A stretch of DNA of 26,222 nucleotides from Myxococcales bacterium (GTDB taxonomy: Bacteria; Myxococcota; Myxococcia; Myxococcales; JAKAPL01): NCBI GenBank assembly GCA_035508175.1, contig DATJNL010000226.1, forward strand, positions 1 through 26,222. Reading direction: 5' to 3'. A model generated the notes under the pieces. That model was not told the origin of the DNA, made no database searches, and saw nothing but the letters and a program-made list of their open reading frames with translations. The translations under genes and the position numbers were made by a program. Positions 10,749 to 23,574 of this stretch are shown here, in pieces. Positions within the stretch are counted from its first letter, which is position 1. Each line of letters starts with the position of its first letter.

Positions 10749-11897
10749 TCAGCCGTCGTTCGCCCGCCAGAGGTACCAGCTCGCCACCGACCGCCACGGA
10801 CGCCACAGCCTCCCGCGCTTCTCGATCTCCGCCGGCTCCGGCAGCTTGCGCTTGCCGAAGGCCCGCTGGAAGCCCTTGCGCACGCCGTAGTCGGTCACGG
10901 GCAGCACGTCGGGGCGGCCGAGCCGGAAGATGAGCATCATCTCGACCGTCCAGCGCCCCACGCCCCTGACCACGGTGAGCCGCTCGACGATCTCCTCGTC
11001 GTCGAGCTGCGCGAGCGCCGCCGAGCCGGGTACGACGCCCGCCTGCGCGTGGCGCGCGAGGTCCTGGATGGCCGCGAGCTTGCTTCGCGACAAGCCGGCG
11101 CCGCGCAGGCGGCGAGCCGGCGTCGCGAGGACGTCCGCCGGCTCGGGAAAACGCTTACCGGGGAACAGCGCGAGCACGCGCCCGAGGATCGTGGCGGCGG
11201 CTTTGCCGTTTAGCTGCTGGTACACGATCGATTGCAGCAACGACTCGAAGGGGCTGCGGCGCGCTTGCAGGCGCAGCCGCAGCGGCCCCTTGGCTTCGAT
11301 CAGCTCGCCGAGCCGCGGATCGGCCTCGGCGAGCCGGCGCGTGGCCTCCAGTCCGTCGTACGGCAGGGGCTCGCCGCCGCGGAAGAGCGCGCCGCCCTCC
11401 ACTTCCAACAGCCGCGCCTTCCTGGCCAGGCCGCCGAAGCCCGACCAGCCGCCGGGGCGCCCCGAGGCGCCGACCACGCGGTGGCACGGAACGACGAGGG
11501 CAAAGGGATTGCGCGCCATCGCATGGCCGACCGCGCGCGCCGCACCGGGGGAACCGGCGAGCTCGGCCAGCTCGCCGTAGCTGCGCGTCTCCCCAGCCTC
11601 CAGCGCCCGTGCGGCCTCGTAGACGCGCCGGTGGAAGGCGGGGATCCCTTCCATGTCGAGCTTCACCGACCCGAGGTTCTGCGACCGGCCGCCGAGGTGT
11701 TCCCTTACGAGGCGAATCGCCTCGCGAACGGGCGCCGGCGGCTTCGCCTCCCGCGCCGCGTCCAGCCCACGAAGCAGTGCGGCGCGCGTCGCCTCGTCGC
11801 TGCCCGCGGAGAGCTGGATGCGCCGGACGCCCCGGCGACCCCAGGCGATCCCGGCGGGTCCCAGCGCCGTCGGAAAGAGGGTGTAGGATATTTCCAT
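10749..11897 (-). CDS. Bifunctional methylated-DNA-protein-cysteine methyltransferase (Ogt-like, N-terminal) fused to DNA-3-methyladenine glycosylase II (AlkA-like, C-terminal)
   Basis: N-terminal half carries the 'LVVPCHRVVGASG' active-site motif (PCHR). C-terminal half carries the HhH-GPD motif 'VRGVGRWTVEMMLIFRLGRPDVLPVTD'. Preferred start is the ATG at 11897 ('MEISYTLFPTALGPAGIAW', a typical Ogt N-terminus). The track TTG at 11963 would add 22 residues. Confidence 0.85.
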   Translation of the reverse strand: MEISYTLFPTALGPAGIAWGRRGVRRIQLSAGSDEATRAALLRGLDAAREAKPPAPVREAIRLVREHLGGRSQNLGSVKLDMEGIPAFHRRVYEAARALEAGETRSYGELAELAGSPGAARAVGHAMARNPFALVVPCHRVVGASGRPGGWSGFGGLARKARLLEVEGGALFRGGEPLPYDGLEATRRLAEADPRLGELIEAKGPLRLRLQARRSPFESLLQSIVYQQLNGKAAATILGRVLALFPGKRFPEPADVLATPARRLRGAGLSRSKLAAIQDLARHAQAGVVPGSAALAQLDDEEIVERLTVVRGVGRWTVEMMLIFRLGRPDVLPVTDYGVRKGFQRAFGKRKLPEPAEIEKRGRLWRPWRSVASWYLWRANDG

Positions 11898-12135
11898 AGA
11901 ATGTCGGTTCGTGGATTTCCCGAGGGGAGAATATACTCGCCGCGGAAGACGTCGATCTCGCAAACATTACGGACCTGAGCTTGCAATCCTTGTCGTCCAA
12001 CCCCGCGCCGTCGCTCGAGGGGGCCGCCGTTCGCCAGCGTTCTCGAAGAGTTCCAGCATCCTCGCCGACGGGCACGCGGTTTGCGTCGTCAGTCGGGGGG
12101 CCGCCTCGCCGCCGTTTCAACTCCCGGAGTCAATC

Positions 12136-13191
12136 ATGAAGAAGGTCATCGCGGTCTTCGCCGCCGCCCTGTGCGCCTGCGCCGCAGCCCCGGTGGTTCC
12201 CGAAGCACAGTTGACGCCGACGGGGAAGATGCCGTGGCCGGCCCAGACGCAGGACCCGCCTGACGCGCCCGCCAAGGTGGCCTACTCGGCGCTGGAGTGC
12301 GAGCGAGAGGCGCGGGCGGCCTTCGAGGGCGGCGACACGGAGTGGGGCTGGCGAGCGCTCGTGGCATGCACCGAGCGGGCCGACTTCATGGACCTCCGGC
12401 CGCTGCTGCGCCGCCCCTGGAAGGACGAGATCGGCCGCCGCGGCAGCGAGGGCGCGGAGATGCTCGGGCGCGTGCTCGTGCGCACCGACCTCGAGCTCGG
12501 CTACGATCTGCGCCGCATCCAGAACGCCGGCATCCCGCTGCTCGACATGAAGCAGGTTGCCGACGATCCCGCCCTCGCAGCCGGCCAGTTCGTGATCCTG
12601 CGCGCCACGGTCGGCTCTCGAAAGGCCTCGCCGAGCGGCGAGCTCGTGCAGCTGTTCGAGCAGAAGCAGGTGGGCTTCTACGAAGGCATGGGCGGCGGCG
12701 AGGAGGGCCAGGGCGGTGGCGGCGCGTTCAGCCCGGCGCAGGTTGCTCGCATGGGCGGCCCCGGAGCGCTGGCCTACGCCGGCACCGGCTACTTCGGCAT
12801 CCCCACGGTGGGCACCCCCCTCGGCCGCGGGATGCGCGGCGGCATGATCGGTCCCGGTCGCCCGTACAGCGGCTGGCCGTACGGCGCCCCCTACAACAAT
12901 GACTACCGCGCCATCGGGCCGGTCTACGGCGAGCAGAGCGAGGACACCGGTCGCGAGGCGGTGCTCGACCTCGACCACCTCGATCCGCGTCTCACCCACG
13001 GCCTCGAGATCGCGGTGCTGGCCCAGGTGGTCGGCGCGGGGCAATCGGACGACTGGTCCGACGTGTGCCGCTCGGGCGACGTGAGCGGCTCGATCACCTG
13101 CCGCAAGGAGCGCCTCCAGGGCCCGCCCACCGCGACGCTCAAGCCCGTTCGGATCTGGATCCTCGAGGCGAGCGACAGCGACGAGCCGTAG
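12136..13191 (+). CDS. Hypothetical lipoprotein with a Gly-rich central region
   Basis: ATG at 12136 with GGAG 6 nt upstream. Signal 'MKKVIAVFAAALCACAAAP'. The 75 codons upstream in the track are antisense artefact. High GC3. Confidence 0.65.
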   Translation: MKKVIAVFAAALCACAAAPVVPEAQLTPTGKMPWPAQTQDPPDAPAKVAYSALECEREARAAFEGGDTEWGWRALVACTERADFMDLRPLLRRPWKDEIGRRGSEGAEMLGRVLVRTDLELGYDLRRIQNAGIPLLDMKQVADDPALAAGQFVILRATVGSRKASPSGELVQLFEQKQVGFYEGMGGGEEGQGGGGAFSPAQVARMGGPGALAYAGTGYFGIPTVGTPLGRGMRGGMIGPGRPYSGWPYGAPYNNDYRAIGPVYGEQSEDTGREAVLDLDHLDPRLTHGLEIAVLAQVVGAGQSDDWSDVCRSGDVSGSITCRKERLQGPPTATLKPVRIWILEASDSDEP

Positions 13192-13197
13192 CCCCGG

Positions 13198-15981
13198 TCA
13201 GCCGCCGTCGGGTGCGCAGTAGCTGTCGCCCCCGCCCGGGCACGGCTTGCAGAACCAGGCGCCCGGGCTCGAGGGATCGCACAACAGGGTCGTCGAGTTG
13301 CAGAGCTGGCCGAGGACCGGCGAGGCGGTGCACTGGTTCTGGAGGTTGGGGTAGCAGGTCGAGGGCTCGACGCAGTTGGCCGTCGCACCATAGACGAGAG
13401 CGCAGTCCGTGAACGAGCTGCACGCCCCGCCCGAGCCGCCGGTCGTGCCGCCGCCCGTCTTGCACGTGTCCGAGCCACCCGAGCCGACCGACTCGCAGCC
13501 CTGCGCGCAGCTCTCGACCTTCGTGAGCGCGCCGTCCTTGCAGGAGTACAGCGCGCTCGCTGTGCCAGGGATGCCGTGGCCGCCGCAGTACAGGCCGTTC
13601 CCGCTGGGGCAGCCCACGGTCGGGGGCGGACAGACGTCGACGCCCGAGGCCACGGACTCCCAGCTCGTCCACGCCGCAGGGCCATCGTTCTCGTGCCGGC
13701 TCGCGACGAGCTCGTGCCCCGAGTTGATCGCGAACACCTCGACCTGCCCGTGCTCGCGCTTCCAGGCGAACGGCTCGGAAGCCATCGAATCGTCCGACCA
13801 GTGGGAGAACGTCCCGAACCGCCGCGTCGCGGGGTTCATCACCGCGTAGCTGATCCGCCCCGAGAGGCCGCGCACGAACACCTCGACGCGCGAATCGGAG
13901 GTCCCGTCGGGCAGCTTCTGGTCGTCGACGGCCGCCGCCGGCTCGCCCTGGATCTGGAAGCCCTCGTTGATCACCTCGAAACGGGCGAAGCCCGAGGCCG
14001 TCGAGCGCGTACCGTAGAGCTGTCCGTCCATGCCTCGCGCGAAGACGTGCAGCACTCCGGTGGCCGGCTCGCGCACCGCGGTAGGGCGCGACGAGAAGCG
14101 TCCGCCCATCGGCTCCCACCCCAGCCACCCGCCGCCGTTCGCCTGCAAACTGGTATCGTACCAGGCCTGACCGTCGTGGTCGGTGACGAAGATCTGGGCC
14201 CGGCCGTCCTTGGTCAGGATCGGCGCGGCGCCGGTCGCAAAGGGGGCGTGGCCCGCGGCGTCGATCTCCAGCCAGCCCTGGTTCGGCGACGTCGACCAGC
14301 GCCGGGTGGTGGGGTCGTAGTACCGGTGCCAGATGCCCCCCTGCTTGCCCAGACCAAAGACCTCGGGCCGGCCGTCCATCCATGGCCCGCTGTGATCGTC
14401 GTTCCAGCGCAAGGTGGACAGCTGGGTGACCAGCCCGCCGCCGAACGAGGACAGGCCGTGCCAGCCGTTGTCGAAGTAGCCCATCTGCGTCTCCGACTTA
14501 CCGGGCGCGAAGAGCTGCGCCTCGGGGGCGGCCACGAGGCTGATCACGGACGCGACCCCGCACTCCGCCGTGCCCGAGAAGGACTCGGGCGGGTGCCAGT
14601 TGTCTGAGTTGCCGTTCGTCCACGCGTGGTGAGCGCTCCCGGAGAGCTCGCGCGCGAATACCTCCACGTGGCCGTCGGTGGGCCAGTCGACGGCCGAGAG
14701 CGTGCCGTTGTTCTCCACCTGGTCGAGCGCGATGAGGCGGCTGATGCCGAGTAGCCCGGCGCTGCCGCTGCCCGTGGGGTTGAGTCCGCCCGCCGCCGGA
14801 CAGCCGGCGGGGCTGCAGGTCGATCCGGCGCTGCAGACCGTCCCCCCGCAGACGGGCAGGCAGGTGTCCTCGAAGCACACCGAACCGCCGCCGCAGTTGT
14901 AGGAGCTCCCGCAGTCCTGAGGAACGCACGCCCCCTCGACGCAGATCTGTCCGGACTGGCACTTCACGCCGTAGCAGGCGGCGTCGACGCAGGTATTCGT
15001 GGCCACGTCGCACACGTCACCCGCCACGCACTGGACGCCGTTCGGGCAGGTCGTCGGCTCGCAGCCCGAGCCCGTGCACAGCGTCCCGGACGGGCAGCCG
15101 CCGCCGTTGAGGCACGCGACGGGCTGGCAGCCGTCGTCGACACACACCTCGCCCGCGGCACAGGTCTGCGAGTCGCAACTCGTGGAAGGACAGCTCCCGT
15201 TGACGCACGCGGAGCCCACGGGACATTCTATCCCGGCGCACGCGAGCTCGGTGCAGGCGCCCTCGTAGCACACCTCTCCCGGCGAGCACTCGACCCCGCC
15301 GTCGCAGGCCGTCGGGTAGTCGACGCCGTAGGCGCACTGCTGCCCGGCGGGCGGCTGGACGCCCACGCAGCCCGCAAAGGTGCAGGCACCCTGGTCGCAG
15401 ACCTCCTGGGCGAGGCAGGCGCCGCCGTCGCAGCTCGTGGGATAACAGCTGCCGGCGGCGCAGAGCTGACCAGAGCCGCAGACGACCCCGACGCACACCG
15501 TGGACGTGCAGGTCCCCTGATCGCAGACGTCGCCGGCGACGCACGACTCGCCGTTGCACGCCGTGGGGTAGCAGCTGCCGTCGGCGCACGCCTGGCCGGC
15601 CGGGCAAACGACGCCGACGCAGGTGGCCTGGGTGCAGACATCCTGATCGCAGACCTCGCCCGGGCCGCACGGCACGCCGTTGCAGCTCGTCGAGGGGCAC
15701 TGCCCCTGCGCATCGCACAGCGTGCCGCTCGGGCACGTCACGCCGACGCAGGCGGAGCTCTCGCACTGGTCGTCGACGCAGACCTGGTTCGCGCCGCAGA
15801 TCATGCCGACGCAGGTGGTGGAGTAGCAGCTGCCAGAGAGGCAAACCTGATCGGCCCCACAACCGGGATCGCAAGAGGCGCCGCCGTTGCTGGCGCCCCC
15901 ATGCCCCGCCGTGGCGCCGCTGCAGCCGGCCAGCAGGCAAGACGCGGCGAGGAAAAACCAGGGGCTCCGGCGGATGCGCAT
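13198..15981 (-). CDS. Secreted lipoprotein: ~15 tandem Cys-rich repeats, 7-bladed beta-propeller-like domain and C-terminal Cys-rich module; non-catalytic paralogue of the gene at 17332..20154
   Basis: ATG at 15981 with GGAGG 6 nt upstream. Lipobox 'FLAASCLLAGCSG'. Repeats of the type 'TCVGVVCPAGQACADGSCYPTAC'. Propeller blades 'HVEVFARELSGSAHHAWT', 'RPEVFGLGKQGGIWHRYYD', 'LHVFARGMDGQLYGTRS', 'VEVFVRGLSGRISYAVM', 'VEVFAINSGHELVASRH'. C-terminal 'CPSGNGLYCGGHGIPGTASALYSCKDG...' matches its paralogue. Confidence 0.8.
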   Translation of the reverse strand: MRIRRSPWFFLAASCLLAGCSGATAGHGGASNGGASCDPGCGADQVCLSGSCYSTTCVGMICGANQVCVDDQCESSACVGVTCPSGTLCDAQGQCPSTSCNGVPCGPGEVCDQDVCTQATCVGVVCPAGQACADGSCYPTACNGESCVAGDVCDQGTCTSTVCVGVVCGSGQLCAAGSCYPTSCDGGACLAQEVCDQGACTFAGCVGVQPPAGQQCAYGVDYPTACDGGVECSPGEVCYEGACTELACAGIECPVGSACVNGSCPSTSCDSQTCAAGEVCVDDGCQPVACLNGGGCPSGTLCTGSGCEPTTCPNGVQCVAGDVCDVATNTCVDAACYGVKCQSGQICVEGACVPQDCGSSYNCGGGSVCFEDTCLPVCGGTVCSAGSTCSPAGCPAAGGLNPTGSGSAGLLGISRLIALDQVENNGTLSAVDWPTDGHVEVFARELSGSAHHAWTNGNSDNWHPPESFSGTAECGVASVISLVAAPEAQLFAPGKSETQMGYFDNGWHGLSSFGGGLVTQLSTLRWNDDHSGPWMDGRPEVFGLGKQGGIWHRYYDPTTRRWSTSPNQGWLEIDAAGHAPFATGAAPILTKDGRAQIFVTDHDGQAWYDTSLQANGGGWLGWEPMGGRFSSRPTAVREPATGVLHVFARGMDGQLYGTRSTASGFARFEVINEGFQIQGEPAAAVDDQKLPDGTSDSRVEVFVRGLSGRISYAVMNPATRRFGTFSHWSDDSMASEPFAWKREHGQVEVFAINSGHELVASRHENDGPAAWTSWESVASGVDVCPPPTVGCPSGNGLYCGGHGIPGTASALYSCKDGALTKVESCAQGCESVGSGGSDTCKTGGGTTGGSGGACSSFTDCALVYGATANCVEPSTCYPNLQNQCTASPVLGQLCNSTTLLCDPSSPGAWFCKPCPGGGDSYCAPDGG

Positions 15982-16038
15982 CGAGAACCTCCGCATGGGC
16001 GATTCTAGCATGGAAAGCCTGGGCGGGCCGCTCCGGCG

Positions 16039-17256
16039 TCAGTCGCACGTCAGACCTGCGTCAGCGTCGCAGACGGGTGCGCTGGCGGGGCAGTCCGAGT
16101 TGTAGGTGCAGCTCCCACACGTGTAACTCGAACTGTCGCAGCCAGGGTTGTCGGCCGGACAATCGGCCGCGGTGCGACACTCGCCGCAGAGCGTGCCCTG
16201 CCCCTGCGGGGAGACACAGAACGGCGTGCCGGCATCCAGCGCCGCACAGTCGCCATCGACCCCGCACTCGCCGCAGGAGCCGCCGACGCAGAAGGGACTG
16301 TCGGGATCGGTGCAGTCGCTAGCCGTGGCGCACTCGACGCAGAGGCCGGTCGACGTGTCGCACACGCCGGTCCCCGTATCCGGATTGGCGAGACAGTCGT
16401 TGTCGGAAGTGCACGGCGGCACGCAGAGGCCGTCCTGTCCCTGGTTGGGATCGCACACATAGCCGCTGCCCGCCGAGGCGCAGTCGCTCTTCTGTGAGCA
16501 GCCGCACACCGGCTGCCCCGGGCCGCCGAACTGCGCTCCGCCGCCGTCTGGAATGCAGATCGGCGTCGCCGACGGACAGCTCGCGTTGGTCGTGCAGCTG
16601 CAGGTCTGGTTCAGGCACGTCATGCCGCTCGGACAGTCGCTCGAGAGGTTGCACTGGCCGCACGTACCCTGCGAGCAGCCGGGCTGGCTGGCCGGGCAGT
16701 CGGAGGGTTTCAGGCAATCGACGCAGCTGTCGGAGACGGTGTCGCAGATCGCCCCGCCCCCGCCGGCACTGCAGTCGCTGTTGCTGAGGCAATCCACGCA
16801 AGCGCCGCTCGCGGGATCACAAACCTGATTCTGGCCGTTCGCCGAGCACGCCGAGGGGTTCGAGCTGCAACCGCCGGCGACGCAGTTGTCCTGCCCCGGC
16901 GCGCACGCCTCGCCCGTGCCGCACTCGCCCGCGACGCCCGGCACGCACTCGACGCACGTCCCGAAGTACTGATCCGCGAGCGTATCGCAGTGCGGCTCGC
17001 CCTGCCCCACGCAATCCGTGTCGGACGCGCACTGCACGCAGGTCCCGTTCGTCGCGCAGTACGGCGTCGGCGCGGTGCAGGCGGGGCTGCAGACACCGCC
17101 ATCCGCCAGGGGGACGTGGTTCGGCACTCCCGAATCGGCCGGCCCTGCGTCGACGCCGGCATCGCCGCCGTCCGGCTTGTTCTCGGTCACGTTCCCCTGG
17201 CACGCGGCCGCCAGCAGGAGGGGGAGCAGGAAGAGCTTGCGCATGGCATTTTCCAT
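16039..17256 (-). CDS. Lipoprotein composed of cysteine-rich 'DC' repeats (C-x2-C-x4-DC-x5-9-C)
   Basis: Signal 'MRKLFLLPLLLAAAC' (alternative start 17244). About 10 repeats, for example 'CVDCLSNSDCSAGGGGAIC', 'CVECATASDCTDPDSPFC', 'CGECRTAADCPADNPGC'. Lies between the two paralogues on the same strand with 57- and 75-bp spacers. Confidence 0.75.
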   Translation of the reverse strand: MENAMRKLFLLPLLLAAACQGNVTENKPDGGDAGVDAGPADSGVPNHVPLADGGVCSPACTAPTPYCATNGTCVQCASDTDCVGQGEPHCDTLADQYFGTCVECVPGVAGECGTGEACAPGQDNCVAGGCSSNPSACSANGQNQVCDPASGACVDCLSNSDCSAGGGGAICDTVSDSCVDCLKPSDCPASQPGCSQGTCGQCNLSSDCPSGMTCLNQTCSCTTNASCPSATPICIPDGGGAQFGGPGQPVCGCSQKSDCASAGSGYVCDPNQGQDGLCVPPCTSDNDCLANPDTGTGVCDTSTGLCVECATASDCTDPDSPFCVGGSCGECGVDGDCAALDAGTPFCVSPQGQGTLCGECRTAADCPADNPGCDSSSYTCGSCTYNSDCPASAPVCDADAGLTCD

Positions 17257-17331
17257 TCTGGGTGAGAGGTTCGCGGGGATCGAATGACGGCGCGCGGGCC
17301 TACCAGAGCGCCCGCGCGCCGCTTTTACCGT

Positions 17332-20154
17332 CTAGCCTCCGAACACGCAGCAGCTCACGCCGGCGGCCTGGCAGCCCGACGGGCAGGCGCCGCATACCAT
17401 GGTGCCTCCGGTCGCGGGGTTGCAGTCGCTGTTGCTCGTGCAGCTCTGGCCCACCAGCACGGCCGCCTCGGTGGTGCAGAGGCTGGCGCCGGTCTCGCCG
17501 GCGCAGATGAGAGCCGGTTGCTCGCAGACCTCGTCGCTCGCGCAATCGGCGTTGCTGCCGCAGCTGCCGCTGCCCGAGCTCTTGCAGGCGTCCTTGCCGC
17601 CGCTGCCGTTGTCCTGGCAGCCGTCCGAGCAAGCCTCGAGCTCCGTCACCTTGCCGCCGTCGCAGGAGTAGAGCGTCCCGGTCGTGCCCTTCACGCCGTG
17701 GCCGCCGCAGTACAGGCCGTTGCCGTTCGGGCACTCGGGCTCGACCTGGGGCGCCGGGCAGGGGTCGATGCCGGTGGCGATGCGCTCGAAGGCCTTCCAG
17801 CCCGTCTTCGAGTGGTAAGCGGCGCCGAGGTGGCCGTTGGTCGTCACCGCGAAGACCTCGACCCGGCCATCGGGCCGCTGCCAGGCGAAGGGGTCGGAGG
17901 CGAAGTCGTCCTCCGAGAGCCTCACGAAGCGGCCGAACTTGTCCGTCTTCGGATCCATCGTGGCGTAGCTCACCTTATCAGAGAGGCCGCGCACGAACAC
18001 CTCGACCTTGCCGTCGTCGACGGCGGCCGAAGGCTCGCCCGCGAAGGCGAAGGTGTCGTCGATGACCTCGAACTTCGAGAATCCGCTGTCGGTGGAGTGG
18101 GCGCCGTAGAGCTTGCCGTCCTGGCCCCGTGCGAAGATCCGCACCGTGCCGCCCGGGTCGCGCACCGCGACCGGCCGCGATCCCAGCGTGCCGCCGAGCG
18201 ACTTCCAGCCCTTCCAGCCCTCGCCCGTCGACCGGTCGCTCTCGTCGTAGAAGGCCTCGCCCTTGGCGTCCGTCGCGAAGAGCAGCGCGTCGCCGGAGCG
18301 GTTCAGGATGGGACTCGCGCCGGTGGCAAGGTCGCCGCCGAGGCTGTCCCAGCTCGACCAGCGCTTGGTCTCCGGATCGTAGTACTTGTGGTAGATGTGG
18401 TGGTCGCCGGCCGCGAGACCGAACACCTCGGTCCGGCCGTCGTTCCAGCCGCCGCTCTTCTCGTCGTTCCAGCGCAGCGTGGACACCTGCTCGAGGTTCT
18501 CACCGCCGAAGCTCGAGAGGTCCTTCCAGCCCTTGTCGTAGAACGACGACTTCGTGTCGCCGTCGTGGCCGGCCGAATCGAAGACCTCGGCGTGCTCGTA
18601 GCCGGCGAAGCTGACGACCGAGGCCACGCCGCAAGCCGCGGCCGAGCCCGTCAGGTCCTCCGCCGCGTGCCACTTGTCGGTCGCGCCGTCCGTCCACACG
18701 TGCGTCGCGCGGCCGGAGTCGGTGCGAGCGAAGACCTCGATGTGCCCGTCCGCCCAGGTGACCGCGGTCAGACCGCCGTTGCTCTCGACCTGGTCGATCG
18801 GGCTGGCGAGAGTCTCGCAGGTGGTGGTCGACGGGACGTAGCCCTTCTTGCGGATGGGGAGGAAGATCTTGTCGACGTCGGCGTAGGCGCCCGCCTCGTC
18901 CCAGTATTCGTAGATGCTGTGGGGCCGGATGGCCGCGGTATAGCCGTAGTCGAACTCCTCGATCGCGCAGTACTCGGTGTGGTCCCGGTTCAGCCAGCCG
19001 CCCCACAGCTCGACGTGGCCCGTGCCCGCCTGCCAGTCACCGGGAAAGTTGATTGCGTCGCCCGGGGTGAGCTGGCCCCAGTTGATGCGCACGGACAGAT
19101 CGTTGTTCCAGGGGCCGCCGGCCAGCGAGTACGTGGTGTCGCTCGTGCCGAGCTGCCACACGTACGAGACGAAGCCCGAGCAGTCCTGCCGGTAGCCGTC
19201 GGTGTAGCTGTCCTGCGAGTACCAGACCCGGCCGACCCAGTTGAAGGCGCGGTCGAGCATGTCCTTGGCCGAACTCGGCGCGATGGCGCGGATGGCGCTC
19301 TCGTCGCAGGCGGAGAGCACGCCTTCGTCGCCGACGCCCGCATTGTTGCAGACCTGCGTGAAGGCCGGCGGCTCGGAGGGGCCGGTGCTGCCCCCGCTCG
19401 AGCCCGAAGAGCCGGAGGAACCCGACTCGTCGGCGAACCCCTGCAGCGACTTCAGATCGCCGATGTAATGATCGTGATCGAGGCCGGAGGTGTTGTACTG
19501 GAAGATGGTGAAGTGGTCCCACGGGCCGTCCGGCATCTGCGGGCAGGTGTTGCCGGGGTTCGAGATCCAAAGCGGGTACTTCGCGAACTCGTCCGGCACG
19601 CGGGTGCCGAAGAAGTCGGGGTAGGTGTAGATGAGCGGCGTGCGGCCCGTGGCCTGCTCCACGCGGTCCAGGAAGATCTTGGCGCGGGCGAAGGCCGTGC
19701 TCCAGTCGACGCCGCTCGTGATCTCCCAGTCCAGGGCCGGCGGAAGATCTCCCTTCGGCGCCGAGCCGATGATCTTGAGGAACAGATCGGCGGCCTTGTT
19801 CGGGTCACTGGATGGGTCGAAGAAGTGATAGGCGCCGTGAATGAGGCCGAGGTCGGCAGCCTTCTTCCGGTAGCCGTCGTAGGTGTCGTCGGTGAAGTAG
19901 TCGCCCTGGCTCGCCTTCAGGTAGACGAAGCGGACGCCGTTGGCCTTGGAGGCCGCCAGGTCGAAGTTCGCGCCGTTGTTGTTCGAGATGTCGATACCGT
20001 ACGTCGTCGCCCCGCTCTCGCAGACCTGGAGCGCCTCCTGCTCGGCATCGGAGAGCGGCTCGGCGCTCGTGGGAGCGAGCCCGCCGCAGGCCTCGAAGAG
20101 CCCGAGGGAGAGAGAAGCGAGGGTGATGGCGATCCAGCGAGAGTCGGCGTTCAT
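17332..20154 (-). CDS. Multi-domain secreted peptidoglycan hydrolase: GH25 muramidase + NlpC/P60-like endopeptidase + 7-bladed beta-propeller + C-terminal Cys-rich module
   Basis: ATG at 20154 with GGAGG 6 nt upstream. GH25: 'GIDISNNNGANFDLAASKANGVRFVYLKASQGDYFTDDTYDGYRKKAADLGLIHGAYHFF'. NlpC/P60 Cys-His: 'YRQDCSGFVSYVW...GDAINFPG...GHVELW'. Ser/Gly linker 'SGSSGSSGSSGGSTG'. Propeller blades 'HIEVFARTDSGRATHVWTDG', 'TVRIFARGQDGKLYGAHS', 'KVEVFVRGLSDKVSYATM', 'RVEVFAVTTNGHLGAAYHS'. Cys-rich C-terminus. Confidence 0.85.
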   Translation of the reverse strand: MNADSRWIAITLASLSLGLFEACGGLAPTSAEPLSDAEQEALQVCESGATTYGIDISNNNGANFDLAASKANGVRFVYLKASQGDYFTDDTYDGYRKKAADLGLIHGAYHFFDPSSDPNKAADLFLKIIGSAPKGDLPPALDWEITSGVDWSTAFARAKIFLDRVEQATGRTPLIYTYPDFFGTRVPDEFAKYPLWISNPGNTCPQMPDGPWDHFTIFQYNTSGLDHDHYIGDLKSLQGFADESGSSGSSGSSGGSTGPSEPPAFTQVCNNAGVGDEGVLSACDESAIRAIAPSSAKDMLDRAFNWVGRVWYSQDSYTDGYRQDCSGFVSYVWQLGTSDTTYSLAGGPWNNDLSVRINWGQLTPGDAINFPGDWQAGTGHVELWGGWLNRDHTEYCAIEEFDYGYTAAIRPHSIYEYWDEAGAYADVDKIFLPIRKKGYVPSTTTCETLASPIDQVESNGGLTAVTWADGHIEVFARTDSGRATHVWTDGATDKWHAAEDLTGSAAACGVASVVSFAGYEHAEVFDSAGHDGDTKSSFYDKGWKDLSSFGGENLEQVSTLRWNDEKSGGWNDGRTEVFGLAAGDHHIYHKYYDPETKRWSSWDSLGGDLATGASPILNRSGDALLFATDAKGEAFYDESDRSTGEGWKGWKSLGGTLGSRPVAVRDPGGTVRIFARGQDGKLYGAHSTDSGFSKFEVIDDTFAFAGEPSAAVDDGKVEVFVRGLSDKVSYATMDPKTDKFGRFVRLSEDDFASDPFAWQRPDGRVEVFAVTTNGHLGAAYHSKTGWKAFERIATGIDPCPAPQVEPECPNGNGLYCGGHGVKGTTGTLYSCDGGKVTELEACSDGCQDNGSGGKDACKSSGSGSCGSNADCASDEVCEQPALICAGETGASLCTTEAAVLVGQSCTSNSDCNPATGGTMVCGACPSGCQAAGVSCCVFGG

Positions 20155-20239
20155 GGTCGGCCTCCGGTTGCTGGTTAGCAAAGCAAGCGGGAGGCCAAGG
20201 CGTCGGAAGACGAACGCGCTGAAATTACATGTGAATTCT

Positions 20240-20258
20240 ATGTCAAACGAATTGACAT
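20240..20258. promoter_or_regulatory. 19-bp perfect inverted repeat ATGTCAA-acgaa-TTGACAT within an AT-rich island (20219..20262), 86 bp upstream of the lysin gene start; candidate operator or promoter element
   Basis: Seen directly. Local AT content is far above the ~70% GC background. It contains a TTGACA hexamer. Adjacent self-palindromes ACATGT and GAATTC are present. Confidence 0.4.
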
Positions 20259-20322
20259 GGAGTGGGGGACGGCCGCTCCACCTCGCGGCTGGACGGCCAG
20301 GGCTCCATTCGAGGCCGCCTGT

Positions 20323-20637
20323 TCAGAACTTGATCTGGAGGCGCGCGACGGGCCGGCCGTGGACCAGGTGTTCGTCCACGATCTCGGGCACATCGGCCAG
20401 CGTGACATGGCCATACCACACGTCGTCGGGATACACGACGATCGAGACGCCATGCTCGCAGGCGTCCAGGCAGCCTGCCGCGTTGGCCCGGCACGTCCCC
20501 TCGAGCCCCCGCTGCTTGATGGCCGCCTTCAACGCGTCCCGGACCGCTTCGGACCCCTTCTCGGAGCAGCAGCCCTTGGGATGCCCGGGCGGTCGCACGT
20601 TGGTGCAAACGAACAAATGTCTCTGGAAGGGCGGCAC
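20323..20637 (-). CDS. Thioredoxin-like [2Fe-2S] ferredoxin
   Basis: Cys pattern C11-x11-C23 ... C56-x3-C60, in 'HLFVCTNVRPPGHPKGCC...CRANAAGCLDACEHG'. GTG start. Confidence 0.7.
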   Translation of the reverse strand: MPPFQRHLFVCTNVRPPGHPKGCCSEKGSEAVRDALKAAIKQRGLEGTCRANAAGCLDACEHGVSIVVYPDDVWYGHVTLADVPEIVDEHLVHGRPVARLQIKF

Positions 20638-20838
20638 GTCCGGCGCATTCTAACCGCCGAACGGCCGGGCCGTCGATGGAAGCTCGGCTCGTCGCGTATT
20701 CCAGATGCGATCCAGAATACCGACAGGGCCTACCCTTCCGTTCGAGAGCGGTTCGACTTTCGTCGTCGCCACCTCTGCAGGTGGTCTATCCGTTCTCTTC
20801 TCGACGGCCGGTCAACTCAGAAAGTAGCCACGCCCCTC

Positions 20839-23574
20839 TCAGGAGCAACCGGAGGTGGAGCCGCAGTTGGCGCACTTGTAGCAGGCGCCGCTGCGCACCA
20901 TGATGCTGCCGCACGTGTGGCAGGGCGGCGCGTCGCTCTCGGTCTGGATGGCGAAGTTCCCCGAGGCCGCCGTGCGAACCGACGGGCTCTCCGGCGCCGG
21001 GGCGGGCAACGCCTTGCGGACCGCCTCCTTCAGCTCGCCGCCGTCCCCGCCCTCCTCGGTGATCTCCTGCTGCTGCGGCAGGAACTTGAGGGACAGCCAG
21101 CGGAAGACGTAGTCGACGATGGACTTCGCGATGGGGATCTGGGGGTTGCCGGTGAAGCCGGACGGCTCGAAGCGCGTGTGGCTGAACTTGTCGACCAGCA
21201 CCTTGAGCGGCACGCCGTACTGCAAGGAGAGCGAGATGGCCGTGGCGAAGCTGTCCATGAGGCCCGACACCACCGAGCCCTCCTTCGCCATCACGCAGAA
21301 CAGCTCACCCGGGCTGCCGTCCTCGTACATGCCGACCGTGAGATAGCCCTCGTGGCCGCCGATCGAGAACTTGTGGGTGATGGCCCGGCGCTCCTCGGGG
21401 AGCCGGCGGCGCAGCGGGCGCGCTTCGCCCGTCACCACCGGCTGGGTCTTGCTCGTGTTGAGCGGCTGGCTGCGCTTGCAGCCGTCGCGGTAGACGGCCA
21501 CCGCCTTGAGCCCCATCTTCCAGGACTCGAGGTACGCGCTCTCGATGTCCTCGACCGTGGCCTGCTGCGGCAGGTTCACGGTCTTCGAGATGGCGCCCGA
21601 CAGGAACGGCTGCACCGCGCCCATCATCTTGATGTGGCCCATGTAGTGGATGCTGCGGCTGCCCGAGGCCGGCTTGAAGGCGCAGTCGAAGACCGAGAGG
21701 TGCTCGGCCTTGAGATCCGGCGCGCCCTCGATGGTCTCGTGCTCGTCCAGGTACGCGAGGATGCGGCCGATGGCCTCCTGGCCGTAGCCCAGCCGCTCCA
21801 GCGCCCCCGGCACCGTGCCGTTGACGATCTTGAGCATGCCGCCGCCCACGAGCTTCTTGTACTTGATGAGCGCGATGTCCGGCTCGATGCCGGTGGTGTC
21901 GCAGTCCATCATGAAGCCGATGGTGCCGGTGGGGGCGAGCACGGTGACCTGCGAGTTCCGGTAGCCGTGGGCCTTGCCGAGCGAGAGCGCGTTGCGCCAC
22001 GCCTGCCGCGCCGCCTGCAGCAGGTCCGGCGGACACACTTCGTCCGGGATGCGCTCGGCGTAGCCGCCGTGCTTCGCGATGACGCGCAGCATCGGCTCCC
22101 GGTTCACCGGATAGCCCTCGAACGGCCCCACCTGCTCGGCGATGCGCGCGCTCATGGCGTAGGCCTCGCCGCACATGAGCGCCGTGATGGCCGCCGCGTA
22201 GGCGCGCCCCGCGTCGCTGTCGTAGGCGAGCCCGCGCGACATGAGCAGCGCGCCCAGGTTCGCGTACCCGAGCCCGAGCGGCCGGAACTTGTGGCTGTTG
22301 TCGCCGATCTTCTCGGTGGGGTAGCGCGCGTTGTCGACGATGATCTCCTGCGCCAGGATGAACACGTCGACGGCCTTCTCGAAGGCCTCGACGTCGACCT
22401 CGCCGTCGAGCGTCCGGAAGGTCATGAGGTTCAGCGACGCCAGGTTGCAGGCCGTGTCGTCGAGGAACATGTACTCGCTGCAGGGGTTCGACGCGTTGAT
22501 GCGCGCGGTGGCGGAGCAGGTGTGCCAGTCGTTCACCGTGGTGTCGAACTGCATCCCCGGATCGCCGCAGGCGTGCGCCGCCTCGGCGATCTCGCGGAAC
22601 AGCGCGCGCGCCTTGTAGGTGTCCATCACGCGGTCGTCGGTGATGGCGCGCGTCTGCCACTCCTTGTCGTCGACCACCGCCTGCATGAAGGAGTCGGTCG
22701 CCCGCACGGAGTTGTTCGAGTTCTGGAAGAACACCGAGGAGTACGCCGCGCCGTTGAAGCTCGAGTCGTAGCCGGCCTCGATGAGCGCCCAGGCCTTCTT
22801 CTCCTCGTCGGCCTTGCAGTGGATGAACTCGAGGATGTCCGGGTGGTCGGCGTTCAGGATGACCATCTTGGCGGCCCGCCGCGTCTTGCCGCCGCTCTTG
22901 ATGACGCCCGCGAAGGCGTCGAAGCCCTTCATGAACGAGACCGGCCCCGAGGCGTCGCCGCCGCCGGCGAGGAGCTCGCGCGACGAGCGGATCACCGAGA
23001 GGTTGGTGCCCGTGCCGGAGCCGTACTTGAAGAGCATGCCCTCGGTGTGCGCGAGGCGCAGGATGCTGTCCATCGAGTCCTGCACGCTGTTGATGAAGCA
23101 GGCGGAGCACTGCGGCTCCTTCTCGACGCCCACGTTGAACCACACCGGGCTGTTGAAACAGCCCTTCTGGCGAAGCAGGAGGTGGGTGAGCTCGGCGTGG
23201 AAGCTGGTCGCGTCGGTCTCGCTCGCGAAGTAGCTGCCCTTGCGCCCCCAGTCGGTGATCGTGTCGACCACGCGGGAGATGAGGTGCTTCACGCTGCGCT
23301 CGCGCTGCGGCGTGCCGAGCGTGCCGCGGAAGTACTTCGAGGCCACCACGTTCGTGGCGAGCGCCGACCAGCTCTTCGGGATCTCGACGTCTTTCTGCTC
23401 GAAGACGACCTTGCCGTCCTCGCCGGTGATCACCGCGGTGCGGTTCTCCCAGGCCACCTCGTCGTAGGGGTTGACGCCGGGGGTGGTGAAGTACCGGGGG
23501 ACCGCGAGGCCCACGCCGCTGCGCTTCTTCGAAGGCCGCTTCGACCCCTGCACGTCTCTGACCTGCCGCTCCAT
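20839..23574 (-). CDS. nrdJ: Class II (adenosylcobalamin-dependent) ribonucleotide reductase
   Basis: ATG at 23574 with GGAGG 5 nt upstream. N-terminus 'VPRYFTTPGVNPYDEVAWENRTAVI'. Active-site region 'NPCSEYMFLDDTACNLASLNL'. C-terminal zinc ribbon 'CHTCGSIMVRSGACYKCANCGSTSGC'. Confidence 0.95.
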   Translation of the reverse strand: MERQVRDVQGSKRPSKKRSGVGLAVPRYFTTPGVNPYDEVAWENRTAVITGEDGKVVFEQKDVEIPKSWSALATNVVASKYFRGTLGTPQRERSVKHLISRVVDTITDWGRKGSYFASETDATSFHAELTHLLLRQKGCFNSPVWFNVGVEKEPQCSACFINSVQDSMDSILRLAHTEGMLFKYGSGTGTNLSVIRSSRELLAGGGDASGPVSFMKGFDAFAGVIKSGGKTRRAAKMVILNADHPDILEFIHCKADEEKKAWALIEAGYDSSFNGAAYSSVFFQNSNNSVRATDSFMQAVVDDKEWQTRAITDDRVMDTYKARALFREIAEAAHACGDPGMQFDTTVNDWHTCSATARINASNPCSEYMFLDDTACNLASLNLMTFRTLDGEVDVEAFEKAVDVFILAQEIIVDNARYPTEKIGDNSHKFRPLGLGYANLGALLMSRGLAYDSDAGRAYAAAITALMCGEAYAMSARIAEQVGPFEGYPVNREPMLRVIAKHGGYAERIPDEVCPPDLLQAARQAWRNALSLGKAHGYRNSQVTVLAPTGTIGFMMDCDTTGIEPDIALIKYKKLVGGGMLKIVNGTVPGALERLGYGQEAIGRILAYLDEHETIEGAPDLKAEHLSVFDCAFKPASGSRSIHYMGHIKMMGAVQPFLSGAISKTVNLPQQATVEDIESAYLESWKMGLKAVAVYRDGCKRSQPLNTSKTQPVVTGEARPLRRRLPEERRAITHKFSIGGHEGYLTVGMYEDGSPGELFCVMAKEGSVVSGLMDSFATAISLSLQYGVPLKVLVDKFSHTRFEPSGFTGNPQIPIAKSIVDYVFRWLSLKFLPQQQEITEEGGDGGELKEAVRKALPAPAPESPSVRTAASGNFAIQTESDAPPCHTCGSIMVRSGACYKCANCGSTSGCS

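Follow-up and report, generated by a model that had tools for sequence, protein, structure and literature searches.

Modular bacteriolytic enzymes, such as the GH25 lysins Cpl-1 and cellosyl and the NlpC/P60 or CHAP lysins with SH3b, LysM or PG_binding modules, combine a catalytic head with binding modules. Lytic enzymes can be obtained from predatory myxobacteria, and little is known of how these enzymes are directed at prey. During myxobacterial predation, several wall-lytic enzymes are delivered free or in vesicles (PMC10849154). The PLL-family lectins bind L-fucose and O-methylated sugars in inter-blade sites, and these sugars occur in nematodes, fungi and some bacteria (PMC6943638). In PHL, each of these sites is made up of pairs of Trp side chains together with a polar site of Arg/Glu/Gln (PMC5584973). 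TraA of Myxococcus xanthus possesses a PA14 lectin-like head, a TIGR04201 Cys-rich stalk and a MYXO-CTERM anchor, and its Cys-rich repeats were proposed to form a rigid stalk that presents the lectin-like domain (PMC3325183). In this study, a contig of a Myxococcales bacterium (DATJNL010000226.1) was analyzed over a stretch of 26,222 bp with ~70% GC (hereafter, the window), in which 13198..20154 is occupied by three successive minus-strand open reading frames (ORFs), named g1, g2 and g3 in the direction of transcription. Their predicted products are a bifunctional lysin, a Cys-rich lipoprotein and a non-catalytic paralogue of the lysin. We lean toward the interpretation that this trio is a conserved, envelope-anchored kit with which an uncultured myxobacterium attacks the cell walls of other bacteria.

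A preliminary description of this DNA had reported three adjacent genes, one of which would encode a GH25 and NlpC/P60 pair, and the ORF list bears out their coordinates (Table 1). The g1 product is identical in sequence to a public entry annotated as 'GH25 family lysozyme'. Its orthologues are few, as a search with full-length g1 found six at 51–75% identity. The GH25 assignment, well above the Pfam cutoff, stands and is accompanied by matches to the GH25 structures 4kru, 6zm8 and 1jfx in PDB. Two of its motifs, GIDIS and LDWE, do not vary among 7 orthologues, and the Asp of GIDIS and the D-x-E of LDWE are presumably the catalytic acidic residues of GH25. The domain is a predicted muramidase. 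A Ser/Gly linker lies between it and the NlpC/P60-like domain. The latter scored 14.5 bits against PF00877 (E 0.034), which is below the curated cutoff of 23, and among the PDB sequences only 3h41 was matched, at an E of 0.57; yet the region is 36% identical (E 3e-20) to an annotated Streptomyces protein with PF00877 and PF01471 (P0015) and 47% identical to a Byssovorax protein (P0007). Moreover, the Cys of 'DCSGFVS' and the His that aligns with 'GHV' of the Streptomyces NlpC/P60 protein are invariant in the 7 orthologues, so that this part of the description also holds. Matches of the region to designer-PPR entries in PDB were spurious and fell on a 'KKGYVPSTTTC' stretch. Weak Pfam matches of the trio products to bacHORMA_2, ACI44, DX, Dumpy_DPY and acylphosphatase were all below cutoff and were taken as chance.

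The paralogy of g1 and g3, which the preliminary description had proposed to check by pairwise alignment, is evident: the two products are 47% identical over 509 residues (E 2e-138), and the alignment begins at the first propeller blade and extends to the C-terminus, so that both the propeller and the Cys module at the C-terminal end are included. The last 133 residues of g1 consist of a 50-residue six-Cys module and an 83-residue Cys-rich tail. The tail was modeled with a predicted local distance difference test (pLDDT) score of 74–89, and no family matched it in domain searches; in P0004 a second six-Cys module is found in its place. The N-terminus of g3 is different. Its lipobox (LLAG-C) is followed by 66 Cys over 358 residues, arranged as ~17 units of 21 residues, to which the earlier count of about 15 repeats came close. 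The DNA of this region has a 126-nt period, and none of the Pfam and NCBIfam models matches it.

The search with full-length g1 returned 16 matches and missed g3, likely because the Ser/Gly linker filled the word-based candidate list, and was repeated with the cassette alone (propeller, six-Cys module and Cys tail). Among the matches of the cassette-only search, the PF26607 propeller was joined to GH25, matrixin (M10), papain (C1), M23, tyrosinase, astacin, DUF1906 and other domains, and the combination of propeller and six-Cys module was restricted to the g1/g3 group and P0017–P0020. P0017 carries the full cassette behind a third, non-GH25 N-terminus, falls inside the g1 clade and is 84% identical to P0006 over the cassette. 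Its N-terminus looked RlpA/DPBB-like by eye, and this was rejected (E 0.46 to PA4485 and no Pfam match). The presence of the cassette behind different N-termini in g1, g3 and P0017 supports the picture of one cassette with exchangeable N-termini. The earlier idea of a modular family is thus upheld with regard to the cassette; targeting by the cassette is what we infer from its fold family and domain partners. In a neighbor-joining tree of the cassettes, the g1 sequences formed a clade with the g3 sequences outside, so that the g1/g3 duplication predates these lineages and both copies were kept. To judge from the sequences compared, g3 evolves faster than g1.

The six-Cys module follows the pattern C-x7-C-x14-C-x10-C-x3-C-x10-C, in which G, Y, L-Y, G and D positions do not vary. 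When 1.84 billion representative proteins were searched with a profile, the module was found in 882 proteins at E ≤ 1e-3 and in 387 at E ≤ 1e-10, with up to ~17 tandem copies per protein; the window has only two copies, one each in g1 and g3. The partner domains in the 86 matches scanned were Peptidase_M23 (16), CHAP (7), GH25 (6), Amidase_2 (4), NAGPA (2), SpoIID (1) and SLT (1). The named sources include Myxococcales, Candidatus Electrothrix and candidate division WS6, and the annotations are hypothetical or generic. Pfam and NCBIfam have no model for the module: a protein with 15 copies lacked any Pfam family, and g1 had no NCBIfam match there. A literature search on the motif found nothing relevant. 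The AlphaFold model of the module has a pLDDT of 92–95, and its best fold matches are chitin binders. The module is an independent mobile unit and, because of its wall-hydrolase partners, would be expected to bind wall glycans.

The propeller of g1 contains seven EVFA-type blades, as read in the sequence, and matches PLL2, PHL, PLL3 and PLL of PDB at E 2e-37 to 4e-26 (6rfz, E 1.8e-37). When its alignment with the PDB lectins was compared with the sugar-contact residues described for PHL (PMC5584973), W..W was kept only in blades 3 and 4, the WHxWQ motif was changed to YHKYY, FYDES and similar sequences, and R-x-E was kept in 2 of 7 blades. Sugar binding by the propeller is therefore not assured, and carbohydrate binding at one or two sites at most is plausible.

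The lipobox of g2 is …LAAA-C, of which the Cys is nearly invariant in the orthologues. The identities to these orthologues are 49–61%, and 37 of the 46 invariant columns are Cys. Against the TraA model NF033759, g2 scored 29 bits (cutoff 750; E 4e-7) and against TIGR04201 14.3 bits (cutoff 25). Both scores are far below the cutoffs for these families, and g3 matched neither. The AF2 model of g2 has a pLDDT of 77. The possibility that g2 is a multiplied Cys tail was also examined and rejected, as the best E between the tail and g2 was 0.15.

The order g1-g2-g3 is found in at least four loci, namely the window, L002, L003/L009 and L008, and partially in L005, L015 and L016. The loci with the full order are from uncultured bacteria, and the named ones are Myxococcales. 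L002 has window-like flanks and encodes g1, a 399-residue g2 and an 835-residue g3. In L003, whose flanks are different, g1 and g2 are followed by a g3 that was split by the gene caller and was re-read as a 970-residue ORF of the same architecture. L009 is a near-identical copy of this locus, in which a cassette-bearing gene is cut by the contig edge and its 3' end is followed by g2. L008 contains g1, g2 and, at the contig end, the start of g3; L005, with different flanks, contains g1 and g2 up to the contig end; g2 also follows g1 in L004. In L016, g2 is preceded by the tail of a g1-like gene, which the contig edge truncates. Orthologues of g3 were identified in L002, L003, L008, L009 and L015. 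When species-representative genomes were scanned, only the L005 contig and distant propellers of Sorangium came up, which suggests that the trio family is rare.

Several features of individual loci were also observed. The public calls split g3 at 14193..15503 of L003 and 1604..2853 of L009, and the Cys-repeat half is uncalled or lies under spurious short ORFs in antisense; full-length g3 is therefore undercounted in databases. L015 has two tandem g2 paralogues of 417 and 421 residues followed by the start of g3 (83..2773, plus strand); g2 can thus be duplicated within the cluster. In L016, a toxin-antitoxin-like nucleotidyltransferase/NTase-substrate-binding pair (1621..2315, minus strand) is inserted on the opposite strand, directly after g2. 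In L003, the trio is immediately followed downstream by a 1,428-residue protein (17176..21462, plus strand) that has 'CGPAGDGCGG…CGxC' Cys/Gly repeats around an IgGFc_binding-type domain.

The three genes had been described as one operon with 57- and 75-bp spacers and a GGAGG-N6-ATG start for each gene. The ribosome-binding motif was confirmed for g1 and g3, whereas g2 lacks GGAGG. The most likely start of g2, to judge from both the public entry and the orthologue alignment, is MRKLF at 17244. The spacer between g2 and g3 is 57 bp as stated, but with this start the gap between g1 and g2 is 87 nt. In the other loci the gaps are 42–112 nt, again between genes of the same strand. A perfect GC hairpin follows the g1 stop codon, and equivalent hairpins of unrelated sequence follow g1 in L002 (12797..12836), L003, L005 and L008, with stems of 11–16 bp across all five loci. 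The whole window contains four hairpins of this kind, compared with ~1.25 expected by chance; the occurrence of a hairpin at one position in five of five loci is not chance. The hairpins have no U-tract and may be high-GC type terminators, attenuators or message-stabilizing ends. No comparable conserved structure was found between g2 and g3 in the loci compared, and a scan for consensus promoters and terminators gave nothing useful in DNA of 70% GC. The conserved hairpin behind g1 thus calls a single uniform operon into question.

Table 1. Features of the g1-g2-g3 locus, with positions in the window and residues of the predicted products
Feature	Position	Strand	Residues	Description or basis
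g1	17332..20154	-	940	Predicted lipoprotein lysin: GH25, NlpC/P60-like domain, PLL propeller, six-Cys module, Cys tail; ORF list
g1 signal peptide with lipobox	20086..20154	-		…LFEA-C23; Cys invariant at this position in 7 orthologues
g1 GH25 muramidase domain (predicted)	19483..19995	-	54-224	PF01183, E 7e-34, 118.1 bits (cutoff 27)
g1 NlpC/P60-like cysteine peptidase domain (predicted)	18835..19284	-	~291-440	Homology and invariant Cys/His
g1 PLL-type seven-bladed beta-propeller	17764..18798	-	453-797	Precomputed PF26607 match; PDB lectins
g1 six-Cys module	17584..17733	-	808-857	50 residues
g1 C-terminal Cys-rich tail	17335..17583	-	858-940	83 residues; common to g3, P0002, P0005, P0006 and P0017
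Perfect GC hairpin	17288..17321	-		10 nt past the g1 stop; stem of 12-13 bp, loop of 10 nt
g2	16039..17244	-	401	Cys-rich lipoprotein, 57 Cys; ORF list, start according to public entry P0137
g3	13198..15981	-	927	Non-catalytic paralogue: lipobox, Cys-repeat stalk, propeller, six-Cys module, tail
g3 Cys-repeat region	14800..15873	-	37-394	66 Cys at 5-5-5-6 spacing
g3 PLL-type propeller	13642..14727	-	~419-780	Aligned with the g1 propeller; PF26607 in the L002 orthologue
g3 six-Cys module	13462..13611	-	791-840	One of the two copies in the window

The products had earlier been called secreted, which is to be refined to lipoproteins: the lipobox Cys of g1 is invariant, its orthologues having GGC, AAC, GAC or AGC at this site (7 orthologues), and the lipoboxes of g2 and g3 are good. 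The lipoboxes of the trio, which were read by eye from the sequence, have no Lys at +2. In the sorting of Myxococcus lipoproteins, absence of Lys at +2 points to the outer membrane, and an outer-membrane location is thus suggested for all three products. The domain identities, the paralogy, the catalytic motifs, the lipobox Cys, the conserved gene order, the hairpin and the association of the six-Cys module with wall hydrolases are shown by the sequences, and we infer the localization, the ligand, the roles of g2 and g3 and their co-expression as follows. The g1 product would be an outer-membrane or vesicle-borne bifunctional lysin, of which the GH25 domain would cut the glycan strand of peptidoglycan and the NlpC/P60-like domain the peptide stem, while the C-terminal cassette would hold the enzyme on the target surface. 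The g3 product, derived from an old duplication of the cassette that would now be carried by a long stalk rich in disulfides, itself behind a lipid anchor, would display the binding head of g1 on the outer membrane or vesicles of the producer and tether them to the target, as an adhesin with the specificity of the lysin. The g2 product may be a rod-like Cys-rich lipoprotein that serves as structural partner or spacer in the same surface assembly, and the hairpin after g1 probably sets the level of the g1 message relative to those of g2 and g3.

Several points weigh against this interpretation. The organism is known from metagenome bins only, and that it is a predator is assumed from the order to which it belongs. 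Most PLL sugar-contact residues, both the paired Trp and R-x-E, are replaced in the g1 propeller. The model of g2 matched no fold in PDB and so gives no functional clue, and distant g2 relatives (39% identity) are not beside lysins. Finally, the hairpin may separate g1 from g2-g3 in transcription. A more far-reaching version, in which g3 grips the target via its lectin cassette, the g2 rod holds or masks g1 on the outer membrane until contact as part of a contact-dependent 'lytic adhesin', and the six-Cys repeat is a new peptidoglycan-binding family in hundreds of wall hydrolases of Myxococcota, cable bacteria and candidate phyla, is unlikely to be right.

The occurrence of g2 after g1 in every locus examined, despite differing flanks, could also reflect self-protection, an explanation to which we assign a low probability. 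In that case g2 would inhibit the lysin as a lipoprotein, much as membrane-bound inhibitors of Gram-negative bacteria do with lysozyme, and/or g3, which has the binding cassette of g1 without the enzymes, would be a decoy that occupies the ligand of the lysin on the producer itself; the duplication of g2 in L015 would fit, and the hairpin could tune the ratio of lysin to partner. Known lysozyme inhibitors are compact, however, unlike the g2 rod of 400 residues in repeats, which has no significant structural match to any inhibitor (knottin matches at E ≥ 0.9). Moreover, distant relatives of g2 occur without lysins, and a lysin that faces outward from the outer membrane would need no periplasmic immunity.

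Adjacency of the three genes might instead result from tandem duplication and domain shuffling without any joint function, with g2 as one of numerous Cys-rich lipoproteins of myxobacteria, placed between two paralogues by chance. That g2-like Cys-rich lipoproteins are found alone elsewhere and that the hairpin may terminate transcription of g1 are consistent with this explanation, which is nevertheless rather improbable, since the order is kept at cassette identities of 47–62% and with different flanking genes, and gaps of 42–112 nt leave little room for independent promoters.

It is less probable still that the lysin remodels the peptidoglycan of its producer, in development, sporulation or programmed lysis, with the lectin parts bound to the producer's own exopolysaccharide or matrix. 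Myxobacteria do remodel or remove their wall during sporulation, and the trio products, as lipoproteins, could all face the periplasm; but the combination of a bifunctional lysin, a large lectin cassette and disulfide-rich modules is seen more typically in extracellular enzymes, the six-Cys module occurs mostly in lytic enzymes of the M23, CHAP and GH25 types with up to ~17 binding repeats, and the family is rare and patchy, unlike a housekeeping set. Least probable is a eukaryotic target such as fungi or nematodes, whose fucosylated or O-methylated glycans or chitin would be recognized by the propeller and the chitin-binding-like module, because both catalytic domains of g1 are specific for peptidoglycan and the usual partners of the six-Cys module are peptidoglycan hydrolases, even though the module's best fold matches are chitin binders and PLL-family lectins bind L-fucose and O-methylated sugars (PMC6943638).

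Other genes in the window include a conserved hypothetical lipoprotein without a Pfam family (MKKVIAVFAAALCAC…; 12133..13191, plus strand), which is convergent with g3 and also adjoins g3 in L002. Upstream of g1 are a small Suc_Fer-like protein (20323..20637, minus strand) and a class II (B12-dependent) ribonucleotide reductase (20839..23574, minus strand), and this synteny is common to L001 and L002 only. An Ogt/AlkA-like repair protein at 10749..11963 (minus strand) has a methylguanine-DNA-methyltransferase DNA-binding domain fused to an HhH-GPD glycosylase domain. Finally, an ORF of >1,060 residues cut by the contig end (3..3185, minus strand) matches the eukaryotic major vault protein (MVP; MVP_shoulder at E 2e-25, Vault_3 and Vault repeats). 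Homologues of MVP are unusual in bacteria.

As an envelope-anchored kit for attack on cell walls, the locus offers a bifunctional lysin whose putative targeting cassette is duplicated into a stalked, enzyme-free surface protein, together with a constant Cys-rich partner, g2. If g2 or g3 control the lysin, they would represent a novel means by which a dangerous enzyme is managed at the outer membrane. If the six-Cys module binds peptidoglycan, it would be a new family of binding modules, of use for lysin annotation and engineering; among known modules, it may be compared with the chitin-binding modules of the CBM14, peritrophin-A and tachycitin type.

Similar to the modular bacteriolytic enzymes, g1 combines a catalytic head with binding modules, and GH25 and a papain-like peptidase are present together in its chain. 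Different from them, its binding part consists of a lectin propeller and a six-Cys module that has no Pfam or NCBIfam model, and g1 is a predicted lipoprotein of a diderm with two conserved non-enzymatic lipoprotein partners. The g1 propeller, with ~345 residues as seven EVFA-type blades and a PF26607 match, is clearly homologous to the Photorhabdus PLL-type lectins. The latter, however, are free oligomeric lectins without the six-Cys module and Cys tail, whereas the g1 propeller is one domain of a 940-residue lipoprotein enzyme and is followed by both; the Trp pairs and R-x-E with which PHL of Photorhabdus contacts sugars are mostly replaced in g1. Similar to TraA, g3 has an anchor, a long disulfide-rich repeat region and a lectin-type head, and g2 is weakly similar to the TraA repeats. 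The polarity of g3 is reversed, however, with the lipid anchor at the N-terminus and the head, a propeller instead of PA14, at the C-terminus, and the trio has neither MYXO-CTERM nor a traB neighbor. Thus, GH25, the NlpC/P60-like domain, the PLL propeller and the Cys-rich stalks are of known kinds; what is new is g2, which has no fold match, the unmodeled six-Cys repeat and the conserved trio itself.

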